From a virus, in the IMG/VR virus record IMGVR_UViG_3300044614_002195, positions 1 to 64,000 of that record: a DNA stretch of 64,000 nt; one strand, given 5' to 3'. The position numbers and the translations under genes were made by a program. The notes beneath the pieces are model-generated. The model had not been told where the DNA came from and made no database searches. It saw only the letters and a program-made list of their open reading frames with translations. Positions 12,762-33,641 of this stretch are shown in pieces. Numbering within the stretch: position 1 is the first letter of the stretch; every line of letters begins with the position of its first letter.

Positions 12762-13454
12762 ATGGCTACTACAAAACAAGAAAAAATAAATAAGCTTAAA
12801 GAATATTTTAAAAACATGAAGTTAGACGCGTCCGTCATGGGTAGAACCCTAGGAAGTCCGACTACTTTTGTAACTCCGCAAATAATGCTAGATGCGTCGG
12901 CTAAACTTTTAAAAATATATGGTCGACAGGCAGATCCAGACGATAGAGACAATCTTGTTTTCTCAAAGTTTATGGGTCCTGAGGACCATGTGAAAGAGCA
13001 TATTGAACATGATGCAGGAAAAATTCAATTTAAAGCTAAAAGCAAACTAAGACAAAAAAGAAACCTCTCCTGGCTACATGCAGGGTTCTTTTCTCCTCAA
13101 GTAAAGTCTGTTTTTGTGGGAAATGCACTGAGTCAGAATATTGAGGGAGTAAATCCTATGGAGCAATATATGCTGGCTCACAAGGTCACTAAGATGGGTG
13201 AAGGCGGGATAGGTTCTACGCAAGCAATCCCAGAAACTTCTCGCGAGGTTAACGAATCACAGTTTGGGCTTCTTGACCCTATCCAGACAGTAGAAGCAAA
13301 CACCATCGGGGTAGTAAATTTTTTCGTTAACAACACGAGGAAAGGCGCTGACGGAAAGCTTTATCGCCAGGTAATTGACAATGCTACAAATAAGCCTGTA
13401 TGGATTGATCATCAAGAGTTCCTTTCTTCTACGATTGAGATTCCTGAGTATTAG
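12762..13454 (+). CDS. rpoB: RNA polymerase beta subunit, middle fragment (fork/rifampicin-pocket region)
   Basis: DDRDNLVFSKF; SQNIEGVNPMEQYMLAHKVTKMGEGG; REVNESQFGLLDPIQTVEANTIG align by eye to DDIDHLGNRR, SQFMDQNNPL...RRISALGPGG and [23 protein letters not shown]. Confidence 0.88.
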   Translation: MATTKQEKINKLKEYFKNMKLDASVMGRTLGSPTTFVTPQIMLDASAKLLKIYGRQADPDDRDNLVFSKFMGPEDHVKEHIEHDAGKIQFKAKSKLRQKRNLSWLHAGFFSPQVKSVFVGNALSQNIEGVNPMEQYMLAHKVTKMGEGGIGSTQAIPETSREVNESQFGLLDPIQTVEANTIGVVNFFVNNTRKGADGKLYRQVIDNATNKPVWIDHQEFLSSTIEIPEY

Positions 13455-13884
13455 AGGCAGACCATTTTTGCGTCGGGCATTGTTCGTTTGCTAGCCAAGG
13501 CTTTATATTACTCTCACCAGATAGCACGCAGTGACCTATGTTGGGAGATCTCTCATGACTATCCCAGAACGAGCAACCTTTACAGGCAGTAATGCGACTC
13601 AAGCAATCTTCTTTTTTAACTACAGGGAAGCCTAATATTGCCCAACGGAAAACTGACAGCTCGTAGTTATTTTTTAATGAGTTTAATGAAACTATATCTG
13701 TAGCTGCAGGAGTAGAAACATTGCTAGCTTCTAAAACCTCTAATAGTTTTTCTCTAGATACACTGAGTTCGGTCCTCTGTTCGTTCCACTCACCGTTTTT
13801 TTCAATCTCATTAACAGTGTTTGATGCAGTTTTTGAATAGTTTTGCAAGTCTTTCGAGGTGAATACAATTTTTTCGTTTTGCAT
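13429..13884 (-). CDS. Protein with C-terminal DUF6171-like Cys motif
   Basis: RITACKGC...GHC...CPTQKW. Confidence 0.65.
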   Translation of the reverse strand: MQNEKIVFTSKDLQNYSKTASNTVNEIEKNGEWNEQRTELSVSREKLLEVLEASNVSTPAATDIVSLNSLKNNYELSVFRWAILGFPVVKKEDCLSRITACKGCSFWDSHERSPNIGHCVLSGESNIKPWLANEQCPTQKWSASNTQESQS

Positions 13885-13903
13885 AATTTAAAGTCTGTAG
13901 TGT

Positions 13904-31367: not shown

Positions 31368-31377
31368 TTTTAAACAT

Positions 31378-31788
31378 ATGCCAGACTTTACAAAACTTGC
31401 AGCCTACCTGGACTCTTTTTCAAAAGAAAGTCCAGACTATGATACAGCTCAATATATAAAGTCAAAGATAGCTGCAGACCTTAAGGACACTAATACCGTA
31501 AACAACGGAGAAGATGCAGAGCTGGACGACAATGATGTAACCATGAGTACACCTGAGCAGCAAACTCAGGAAAACCAAGAAGGTGAAGAAATGCACGGAG
31601 CCTTCAAAGAGCTAGATGTCATGAATCAGCTTAAAGAAGAAAAAGAAGAAGTTAAGCTGCCCGGACAAAAAGACGAAAATGGAAATACCAAATTAGACGT
31701 ATCTACCGAAGAAACTTTCGGAGACAATGTTTTGAATCGTAAAAGCGCTTCACTCTTTGAAGTAATAAAACAAAAGCTTAAAAAATAA
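31378..31788 (+). CDS. Acidic putative internal head protein
   Basis: Start reassigned to MPDFTKLAAYL; TKLA and RKSA motifs; TAATG-coupled to beta'-C. Confidence 0.6.
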   Translation: MPDFTKLAAYLDSFSKESPDYDTAQYIKSKIAADLKDTNTVNNGEDAELDDNDVTMSTPEQQTQENQEGEEMHGAFKELDVMNQLKEEKEEVKLPGQKDENGNTKLDVSTEETFGDNVLNRKSASLFEVIKQKLKK

Positions 31789-33641
31789 TGGCTACAACTA
31801 CAGTAGGGAGAGTTCTTTTAAAGTTTTTTACTCCCCCTCAATTCCATAGTTTGATAGACGGCCTTGTCTTGGATAAAAAGGGTATATCTAAGCTTTTTGC
31901 TGAAATAGCAGAAAAGGCGCCTGACGAATACAGCAAGATTGCTTCAGAATTAACTCGTCTAGGATTTGAGATAGCCACGAGGCAAGGCACATCCATAACT
32001 TTAAAAGACCTAATTTCTCCAATAGATAAAGAAAAGGTATGGAAAGACTTTGAGAGTTATAAAGAAAAAATAGAAGCTTCGTCGGATACTCAGCAGGTCA
32101 AAGACCATAAAATATTTGATAAGTATAATCAAATGATGTCTGACATTGAAAAAGACATTCTTGATAAAGGACTAACTGAGAACAAATCTTTGGCTAAAAT
32201 TATTCTAGCAGGGTCTAGAGGTTCACCTGCACAGTATAGAGGAACTATAGCCACTCAAGGTTTTGTGGTGGATGCAGAAGGCAAGCCTAAGATGGATATT
32301 CCAATTAAAAGCTCTTATGCTGAAGGTTTATCCCTGCCTGAATATCTGGCTACTTCTTTTGGTACACGTACTGGAGAAGTCTTGAAAAAGATATCCGTTG
32401 CTCAAGGCGGCTACGGGTCAAAGCAATTCGCCAGGGCACTTATGCCTTTACAGGTCGTAGAAAACGATTGCGAGACGCTAAACGGGATTACCGTATCTGT
32501 AAGCGACAAGGAATCAGCAGGAGCATATTTAGCAAAGGCTGTTGAAAACTATAACAGGAACAATGAAGTAACTTTTAAAATGCTTAATGATCTTAATAAT
32601 AAGAACATTAAGTCTATAGTCATAAGATCCCCGATGACCTGCCAATCTAACAAGAAGCATCATTCAGGCGGATTGTGCCAGATGTGTGTAGGTAAAAGAG
32701 AAAAAGGTCTTGCAGCTTTAGATAGCTATATAGGCCTGGTGGCAGGTACGGCTGTAGCTGAACCTTTGACCGAAAGCGCCATGAAAGCAAGACATGGTGG
32801 AGGTGCTGCGACATCACTAGCGGGGAGTCATTTAGGTTTTAAACTAATTAATCAGTTAGCTAACATTCCTAAGACATTTGTAGGTAAAGCCCCTCTAGCT
32901 CAAGAAGATGGATTTGTAACTGCGTTAGAACCTGCGGCAGCTGGAGGATTTTTTATCTCGGTAAATAATCACGAGCATTATATAGGCATTGATCAGCAGC
33001 CTACAGTTAAACTTGGTGATCGCGTAGAACAAGGACAGGTACTCAGTTCAGGTCTGGTAGATCCCAGAGAAGCTGTTAAATATAGAGGTATAGGAGACGG
33101 TAGAAAGTATTATATGGAGGCCATGAAGAAAGCCTTCGACGATAGTGGTCTAGGAGTTAATAGAAGAAATTTTGAGCTTATAGCCAAAGCAGCCATAGAT
33201 CATGTAAAGATCACAGACCCTGAAGGTATCGGAGATTATCTTCCAGATCAGGTTGTATCATATTCAGCTATAGAGAAAGACTATACACCTAGAGCAGACT
33301 CTAAAATGCTTAGAGTAGATTTGGCTTATGGTAAGTATTTAGAGAAGCCTGAAATGCATTACACTATAGGTACAAGAATAACTACAGGTGTTATTAAAGA
33401 TTTAAAAGATCATGAGATCGAGGCAATCCTTGTTAACGATAATGAACCTAATTTTGAGCCTACAATGGTGAGGCTTGTAGATATTCCAGAACATCATGAC
33501 GATTGGATGCATGTACTTAACAGTACAAATCTAGCGAAAAGGTTCGTCAATATGGTTAACAGAGGGTCAACATCCGACACAAAGGGCCCAAGTCCAATTC
33601 CAGGTTTGGCCTACGGTGTAGGCTTCGGTCAAAAAGATTAA
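31788..33641 (+). CDS. rpoC: RNA polymerase beta' subunit, C-terminal fragment
   Basis: TTVGR, AGSRGSPAQY, bridge helix GLSLPEYLATSFGTRTG...GGY, Zn site DCET...RSPMTC...CQMCVG, trigger loop AEPLTESAMKARHGGG, and NRRNFELI. Confidence 0.95.
   Translation: MATTTVGRVLLKFFTPPQFHSLIDGLVLDKKGISKLFAEIAEKAPDEYSKIASELTRLGFEIATRQGTSITLKDLISPIDKEKVWKDFESYKEKIEASSDTQQVKDHKIFDKYNQMMSDIEKDILDKGLTENKSLAKIILAGSRGSPAQYRGTIATQGFVVDAEGKPKMDIPIKSSYAEGLSLPEYLATSFGTRTGEVLKKISVAQGGYGSKQFARALMPLQVVENDCETLNGITVSVSDKESAGAYLAKAVENYNRNNEVTFKMLNDLNNKNIKSIVIRSPMTCQSNKKHHSGGLCQMCVGKREKGLAALDSYIGLVAGTAVAEPLTESAMKARHGGGAATSLAGSHLGFKLINQLANIPKTFVGKAPLAQEDGFVTALEPAAAGGFFISVNNHEHYIGIDQQPTVKLGDRVEQGQVLSSGLVDPREAVKYRGIGDGRKYYMEAMKKAFDDSGLGVNRRNFELIAKAAIDHVKITDPEGIGDYLPDQVVSYSAIEKDYTPRADSKMLRVDLAYGKYLEKPEMHYTIGTRITTGVIKDLKDHEIEAILVNDNEPNFEPTMVRLVDIPEHHDDWMHVLNSTNLAKRFVNMVNRGSTSDTKGPSPIPGLAYGVGFGQKD

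Follow-up and report, generated by a model that had tools for sequence, protein, structure and literature searches.

The closest described relatives of the RNA polymerase (RNAP) genes considered here are found in Salmonella phage Arash (OQ632216; Yousefi et al. 2023, PMC10585845) and in Vibrio phages D69, D148 and D181, the nearest of 38 phage records matched by tblastn. Arash encodes the large subunits of a multisubunit RNAP in two genes, gp206 (1525 aa) and, nine genes later, gp216 (606 aa). In the Arash paper they are annotated as beta and beta', with no discussion of their layout. Mass spectrometry of purified Arash virions gave the most spectra for gp206, ranked gp216 with it in the most abundant group, and also listed the sigma-like gp10 and the helicase gp217 (PMC10585845). 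Here we analyze a 64,000-nucleotide stretch of viral DNA (hereafter the window), positions 1 to 64,000 of IMG/VR record IMGVR_UViG_3300044614_002195, in which regions equivalent to beta and beta' are distributed over four separate open reading frames (ORFs). We estimate a probability of roughly 0.85 that these four genes are the complete large-subunit set of this phage's only multisubunit RNAP, which would be assembled non-covalently and derived from an Arash-type enzyme. The genes, in the order of their products along bacterial beta and beta', are:

18688..19353, minus strand: beta-N, 221 aa, approximately E. coli beta 1-245; no Cys
12762..13454, plus strand: beta-mid, 230 aa, approximately E. 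coli beta 390-620; no Cys
27191..30184, plus strand: betaC-beta'N fusion, 997 aa, E. coli beta 639-1340 followed by beta' ~20-550
31788..33641, plus strand: beta'C, 617 aa, E. coli beta' 571 to ~1280; begins at a TTVGR motif

All four ORFs lie at the coordinates and on the strands given in an earlier note, which had described an RNAP core split into four genes, and each starts with ATG. Between them they carry the beta N-terminal modules (protrusion, lobe and fork), both double-psi barrels, and the half of the enzyme that holds the bridge helix and trigger loop. Beta-mid supplies the lobe's second half, completes the protrusion and contains the fork (Rpb2 domain 3 with the rifampicin-pocket region). 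The fusion chain runs from the hybrid-binding region through the flap, the beta double-psi barrel and part of the clamp into the beta' clamp and the beta' double-psi barrel with its DCDGD motif, so that both catalytic barrels lie within a single 997-aa chain. Beta'C contains the bridge helix, a trigger loop without SI3, the second zinc site and the jaw/cleft.

Three of the ORFs were recognized by Pfam. Beta-mid matched Rpb2_3 above cut-off (E 3e-6), the 997-aa chain matched Rpb2_6 (PF00562, E 1e-46, aa 98-460), Rpb1_1 and Rpb1_2 (PF00623), and beta'C matched Rpb1_5 (PF04998, E 1e-13) and, weakly, Rpb1_3. For beta-N, all 27 phmmer matches in the PDB were RpoB N-terminal regions (best E 1e-3), and the top 50 Foldseek matches were all RpoB chains or M. 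tuberculosis beta1-beta2 crystal structures (E ~1e-6, with low template-modelling (TM) scores of 0.26-0.36). The single Pfam match of beta-N, to Tim44, was below cut-off and we judged it to be a chance similarity.

When we aligned the pieces with the Arash proteins, they fell in order on one chain: beta-N aa 38-218 on gp206 36-222 (BLASTP, E 1e-20), beta-mid aa 12-229 on gp206 240-469 (BLASTP, E 9e-24), and the 997-aa chain aa 4-990 on gp206 472-1517 (32% identity, E 4e-149). Beta'C aligned over its full length with gp216 (27% identity, E 7e-62). The pieces are therefore successive and non-overlapping, as the earlier note had claimed, and because they lie in order and end to end on gp206, nothing is missing or duplicated at the joints. 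This in-order, end-to-end alignment also settles the identity of beta-N.

We placed the pieces on E. coli numbering with phmmer against the PDB and with family profiles scored on Salmonella RpoB and RpoC, which share that numbering. Positions 79-185 of the beta-N profile match RpoB 113-224 (E 1e-13), and positions 27-186 of the beta-mid profile match RpoB 420-583 (E 9e-24); with phmmer, beta-mid aa 38-208 fall on E. coli RpoB 421-598. The fusion chain has PDB matches to both RpoB and RpoC, and its profile covers beta 639-932, 1048-1132 and 1178-1340 and then beta' 20-65 and 160-548. The junction between the two subunits is direct, with fusion residue 537 equivalent to RpoB 1340 (of 1342) and residue 551 to RpoC 30. 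Beta'C aa 3-346 correspond to E. coli beta' 571-946 by phmmer, and the beta'C profile covers beta' 571-946 and 1186-1281 (with 723-940 also aligned); in addition, beta'C aa 25-28 align with residues 12-14 of cyanobacterial RpoC2.

This numbering locates three cuts. The one between beta-N and beta-mid lies in the beta2 lobe, where E. coli has the dispensable insertion betai4 (betaSI1). In E. coli, betai4/SI1 spans residues 226 to ~345 and betai9/SI2 residues 938-1042, and there is a further insert in the trigger loop (PMC2939025); betaSI2 is absent from the fusion chain. The cut between beta-mid and betaC falls at approximately beta 600-635, just past the fork domain. The cut between beta'N and beta'C falls at approximately beta' 550-570, within ~15 residues of the start of cyanobacterial RpoC2, and the same region of beta' is also cut in phiKZ-type enzymes (PMC7598289).

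The ends of the pieces bear on whether the chains could be rejoined. Split inteins or trans-splicing could in principle join the pieces after translation or at the RNA level and so restore the usual two-chain Arash-type enzyme, and inteins and homing endonucleases abound in the family, with insertions even in close beta-mid homologues. However, only 1-14 residues (3, 11, 1 and 3) at the ends of the pieces extend beyond the homology to gp206, which is far too short to leave room for split-intein halves. Each piece also has its own ATG and stop codon, the pieces lie on different strands and 6-14 kb apart, and none of the four ORFs contains a Pfam intein domain. We consider such rejoining very improbable, and favor an enzyme made of four separate chains.

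The catalytic motifs, which the earlier note had reported as present, are retained. The beta lysines lie in an ADK...GAKG arrangement that aligns with GDK...GNKG in Arash, and DCDGD occupies positions 908-912 of the fusion chain. In the metal loop, GGDCDGD, all three aspartates are kept and Cys910 stands in place of the usual Phe. As this is the only cysteine in the 997-aa chain, the four-Cys zinc-binding domain at the N-terminus of beta' has been lost; at the site of the loss, DGLFDPTLVG continues directly into YNHIVL. Beta'C has exactly four cysteines (228, 285, 297 and 300), positioned like the second zinc site, and the whole polymerase has 5 cysteines in 2065 residues. At the rifampicin-contact positions of beta-mid (aa ~124-147), the differences from E. 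coli are F514N, D516E, H526L, R529K and S531T. Because these pocket positions differ, the enzyme is predicted to be insensitive to rifampicin.

We then asked what else the genome encodes for transcription. The source record is a 198,289-bp freshwater virus with a CheckV completeness of 100%, of which the window is the first 64 kb (guanine-plus-cytosine content ~40%). Although IMG/VR labels it "linear", the genome is closed, since 147 bp are identical at both ends of the record (window 1-147 and record 198143-198289). The closed genome contains no intact rpoB or rpoC that could replace the split genes; it has one Rpb2_6 locus, one Rpb1_2 locus and no Rpb2_1 match. Searches of the closed genome for alpha (RNA_pol_L, PF01193) and omega (Rpb6, PF01192) gave no match at E up to 1, whereas both models matched in 14 of 14 control genomes. 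The enzyme may consequently have some dependence on the host, for alpha or omega. The statement in the earlier note that no alpha, omega or sigma gene is visible holds for the window as such, but not for sigma in the whole genome, where a sigma-like gene lies at ~140 kb:

record 140153-140794: sigma-like ORF, 213 aa, Sigma70_r4_2 match of 28.8 bits (above cut-off), region 2 matched weakly; resembles extracytoplasmic function (ECF)-type sigma factors

A second, weaker match to sigma region 4 is present at record 158808-158888. Scans of the DNA for sigma-70-type promoters and terminators gave counts not above those in shuffled sequence, with one extended -10-like site found at 12671-12700, ahead of beta-mid. 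A TA(A/C)TATAGCT-like motif stands 4-15 nt before the beta-mid ATG in six genomes (the window, within 12700-12761, and relatives L015-L019), with no Shine-Dalgarno sequence there; this motif could be a phage promoter or could point to leaderless initiation. Near 12712 a short minus-strand ORF, absent from the ORF list, also appears to begin.

The four-gene layout is conserved. The fusion gene is 68-81% identical in nine related viral contigs, and all five of the related genomes that we searched whole (59-85% amino acid identity) have a stand-alone beta-mid on the plus strand and a stand-alone beta-N on the minus strand, both upstream of the fusion gene. Order and strands are the same in the seven loci with enough flanking sequence. 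In a relative whose beta-mid is only 43% identical, the gene still lies beside a dCMP (deoxycytidine monophosphate) deaminase gene. In two relatives at 53-55% identity, beta-N and beta-mid were not found within 10 kb of the fusion gene. A 228-aa ORF near beta-mid in a distant relative (L029) was considered as a possible beta-N and rejected.

This conservation bears directly on a possible assembly artefact, in which a chimeric or rearranged metagenomic contig would have scattered a gene that is contiguous in reality. The record is indeed a metagenome assembly, and public contigs from four runs, when aligned to the region, cover it only in fragments: X7 is found in all 30 bins and X6 over 21.2-32.5 kb, and neither extends across the entire stretch. 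Nevertheless, the same order and strands recur in five independently assembled genomes and the seven loci mentioned above, each piece is a complete ORF with start and stop, and the 43%-identical relative keeps the deaminase neighbor. In eight public runs, mostly from lakes and rivers, half or more of the words sampled from a 6.9-kb stretch of this region are present, and one of the eight may be the source sample itself. We regard an artefact as scarcely credible, and take the separation of the four genes as a property of the phage.

Selection was assessed by pairwise Nei-Gojobori comparison of six genomes. Beta-mid gave a proportion of nonsynonymous differences (pN) of 0.09-0.21 and beta-N one of 0.14-0.31; the values were 0.13-0.24 in the fusion gene and 0.11-0.23 in beta'C, while the synonymous proportion (pS) was saturated at 0.70-0.90. 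Because of this saturation the Nei-Gojobori (NG86) dS could not be computed for most pairs; where it could, the dN/dS ratio was 0.04-0.13. As the pN ranges are alike and pS is saturated throughout, the small genes are constrained as strongly as the large ones. The pseudogene signature (dN/dS near 1) that the earlier note had raised for the small fragments is absent, and all four genes are under purifying selection.

To these comparisons we added a structural prediction for the two small chains. Co-folding of beta-N with beta-mid gave an interface score (ipSAE) of 0.79 in each of three runs, in comparison to 0.00 for the best of three controls. A score of 0.79 was reached by 58 of 80 solved complexes and by 2 of 110 mismatched pairs. 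The runs agreed in at least 98% of contacts, the partner had a predicted local distance difference test (pLDDT) score of 90, and about 335 contacts interweave the chains.

The family to which these genes belong is large. A search with the fusion gene recovered homologues in 530 clusters at E <1e-20, most of the best 120 being ~990-1000 aa long, and stand-alone beta-N forms 187 clusters of ~220 aa, many of them named RNA polymerase beta subunit by the Joint Genome Institute (JGI). An exhaustive search with beta-mid gave 844 representative proteins with E of 1e-10 or lower, and 1043 when the limit was relaxed to 1e-3. We scored the best 150 beta-mid-containing representatives with profiles of all four pieces. 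More than half (77 of 150) carried betaN, mid, betaC and beta'N in one chain, with a core of ~1450-1475 aa and longer members containing inteins or other inserts; a further 29 were one-chain fusions incomplete on the C-terminal side. Ten began with beta-mid (only beta-N cut off), nine consisted of betaN and mid (only the second cut), and nine were beta-mid alone, while beta'C was present in none of the 150. These architectures indicate that the fusion and the beta' cut are family-wide and that each of the beta cuts is used singly elsewhere.

The joint between betaN and mid is a hot spot for insertion, with inserts of up to 1039 residues. Homologues P0136 and P0143 have an inorganic pyrophosphatase domain in a 690-1040-aa insert at this joint, and in P0142 a NUDIX domain precedes beta-N. 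The RNAP genes of many family members, among them P0070, P0076, P0077, P0102, P0129 and P0140, contain intein or LAGLIDADG domains. Three close beta-mid homologues (P0121, P0123 and P0125) contain an unrecognized insertion of 140-340 aa after residue ~153, within the conserved GEGG fork loop.

Given that the usual state of the family is beta fused to beta'N plus a separate beta'C, the two extra beta cuts appear to be derived. A tree built by a quick method from the beta-mid segment (216 columns, midpoint-rooted) placed the window's six stand-alone beta-mid forms in one clade (Shimodaira-Hasegawa-like approximate likelihood ratio test (SH-aLRT) support of 99) among fused forms, with the Arash group across the midpoint root. 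We propose, provisionally, that the four-gene state most likely arose by fission of a two-gene form. The ancestor would have resembled Arash, with one gene for all of beta plus beta'N and a second for beta'C. Two further fissions would then have occurred at surface or inter-domain sites, one in the lobe at the betaSI1 position and one just after the fork, and the small genes would subsequently have relocated, beta-mid to the nucleotide-metabolism genes on the plus strand and beta-N to the minus strand.

In the resulting enzyme, the DCDGD metal loop and the beta catalytic lysines would sit together in the 997-aa polypeptide, beta'C would provide the bridge helix and trigger loop, and beta-N and beta-mid would jointly restore beta's protrusion, lobe and fork. 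All four are expected to associate non-covalently into a core without alpha or omega of its own, which probably uses the phage sigma-like factor; by analogy with Arash, the enzyme may be carried in the virion. We infer this assembly and its activity from the abutting map, the sole gene set, the conserved layout, the selection on all four genes and the co-fold, which together support the proposal in the earlier note that four polypeptides combine in trans with boundaries unlike those of cellular RNAP.

Several observations weigh against this reading. Beta-N has no Pfam Rpb2 match, so that the earlier note's expectation that the ORFs would hit Rpb2 and Rpb1 profiles and co-fold held for three ORFs and for the beta-N/beta-mid pair but not for the Pfam search with beta-N. 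Modelled alone, beta-N reaches a moderate pLDDT of 67 and its residues 107-153 are disordered; the same residues lie within the interface of the co-fold. The co-fold itself covers two of the four chains, and as these are two halves of one fold whose relatives have been solved, its pass may reflect likeness to, or memory of, solved RpoB structures rather than binding. The small genes are placed elsewhere than the large ones and differ from them in strand context, and co-expression is not evident. None of the listed public runs that match the 6.9-kb stretch is an RNA run. Pairwise comparison of the sigma-like ORF with Arash gp10 gave no similarity. The idea of virion packaging is an analogy with a relative of ~30% identity, and here the large genes merely adjoin head and structural genes. 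The direction of fission, finally, depends on a short, midpoint-rooted alignment, and some of the alone or partial forms in the family may be ORFs cut by contig ends.

The first of these points, and the position of the small genes apart from the large ones on another strand or among unrelated genes, would fit a polymerase that consists of the 997-aa and 617-aa proteins, perhaps with host beta or other subunits, the small ORFs being decaying leftovers or repurposed. The lack of encoded alpha and omega, which leaves room for dependence on the host, is in keeping with this as well. However, neither small ORF is disrupted, and over six genomes their conservation is much the same as that of the large ones; many stand-alone clusters exist, and the pieces abut exactly on the fused homologue. 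A polymerase without the small chains would also be missing three modules of beta, the protrusion, the lobe and the fork, and with them the fork-loop and rifampicin-pocket region next to the active site, and the beta-N/beta-mid co-fold passed its controls. We therefore find it improbable that the small ORFs are remnants, and retain the four-chain enzyme as the preferred explanation.

Within the four-chain enzyme, the fragmentation might itself be functional. The 997-aa chain would then be a minimal catalytic cassette, and detachable beta-N, beta-mid and beta'C, produced from differently regulated regions, would control the formation, packaging or form of the polymerase. We think this unlikely. 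If true, one gene set could give, for example, virion and intracellular forms, where phiKZ uses two enzymes.

The surroundings of the RNAP genes include the following features:

18218-18625, minus strand: SET-domain ORF, 135 aa (Pfam SET, E 4e-15)
15040-16569, minus strand: collagen triple-helix repeat ORF (Pfam Collagen, E 2e-9)
17510-18079, minus strand: collagen triple-helix repeat ORF (Pfam Collagen, E 3e-3)
33715-35925, plus strand: 736-aa ORF after beta'C, homologous to the Arash gp218 virion structural protein (E 2e-12)
in the window, around the RNAP genes: ribonucleotide reductase (RNR) large and small subunits, amidase and dCMP deaminase

The match of the 736-aa ORF to gp218 places the two large RNAP genes at the edge of a structural module. 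The dCMP deaminase and RNR genes adjoin beta-mid and the SET ORF adjoins beta-N, as had been described. The SET ORF lies directly downstream of beta-N on the same strand, and such a lysine methyltransferase-like gene is unusual for a phage. Contigs from several metagenomes pile up at 17.3-17.6 kb, as a repeat would predict. Ten neighboring ORFs had no match in PHROGs, many window ORFs near the RNAP genes are without a Pfam or PHROG match, and no tRNA was found in the window.

The large subunits of RNAP are among the most conserved of proteins, and their gene boundaries are nearly fixed in cells. In this phage lineage, two extra cuts in beta, a beta-beta' fusion and a cut in beta' have accumulated, and every piece is still under selection, which illustrates the freedom with which this enzyme can be divided and rejoined. 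Natural evolution has here repeated and extended the split-site experiments made with E. coli RNAP, with one cut at a place in the lobe where cellular enzymes have insertions only, and the lack of alpha and omega raises the question of how such a core assembles. Arash is the family's one cultured member, which brings bench tests of how well the cut sites are tolerated, and of what the fusion does, within reach. In genome annotation, ORFs of 220-230 aa labelled "hypothetical" or "beta subunit" and lying far from other RNAP genes should be recognized as essential parts of a polymerase, and trees based on the "beta gene" of such phages need all of its pieces.

The earlier note had named mReC and phiKZ as comparators. 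The right comparison is instead the Arash-type family, with this phage probably a further-split derivative. Arash and the Vibrio phages are 27-37% identical to it piecewise, and Arash has the same head-to-tail join of beta and beta', the same cut of beta' before TTVGR, a gp218-like structural gene after beta'C and a sigma-like gene. Arash keeps the whole of beta in the fusion chain and so has two genes, whereas here beta occupies three genes and the total is four; because of this, the window is a variant and not the standard Arash form. In Arash, beta'C is directly followed by gp217 (L001:19262-20680), an SNF2 helicase with the annotation DNA helicase; this genome lacks such a gene, as neither PF00176 nor tblastn found one. 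An SNF2-type helicase lies beside the RNAP genes in the two relatives at 53-55% identity (L033:7500-9290 and L034:7108-8508, both on the minus strand). No similarity to Arash gp205 was seen in the 115-aa ORF that precedes the fusion gene.

The phiKZ/AR9 enzymes (Sokolova et al. 2020, PMC7598289; Iyer et al. 2021, PMC7824862) are likewise two-barrel RNAPs in which several polypeptides jointly make up the equivalent of beta and beta'. Their beta' is cut past the barrel, close to the cyanobacterial site, their beta is in two or three pieces (several in the virion RNAP), and they have no alpha or omega. They are, however, far more divergent from bacterial RNAP, come as virion and non-virion sets, have neither a beta-beta' fusion nor sigma, and are cut at other sites in beta. 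Here a single set occurs, with a betaC-beta'N fusion and a sigma-like gene, and phiKZ-like phages were not among the 38 phage records matched by tblastn. The mReC phages (Weinheimer and Aylward 2020, PMC7481178) are also tailed, with many members from aquatic metagenomes and with bacterial-like RNAP large subunits, but these are encoded by two distinct, mostly adjacent and near-full-length genes (beta ~900-1560 aa, beta' ~900-1390 aa), and the paper mentions no fusion or split within mReC (PMC7481178).

Single elements of the layout recur in cellular enzymes, which differ from this genome's RNAP gene set in keeping alpha2 and omega. The beta' cut resembles that between rpoC1 and rpoC2 (gamma/beta') of cyanobacteria and chloroplasts, in that beta'C starts within ~15 residues of the RpoC2 start. 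The cut between beta-mid and betaC, just after Rpb2 domain 3, is in what we take to be the position of the archaeal B''/B' cut. In Helicobacter and Wolbachia, rpoB and rpoC are fused with the beta C-terminus joined head-to-tail to the beta' N-terminus, as here. For the lobe cut at the betaSI1 (betai4) site we know of no natural cellular counterpart, nor, to our knowledge, does any cellular enzyme combine a fusion at the beta/beta' border with three cuts. We found no description in the literature of a betaC-beta'N fusion together with a three-way split of beta, and the four-chain layout is apparently undescribed in print. Our results confirm it as real and conserved, one architectural variant within the large and barely described Arash-type family.

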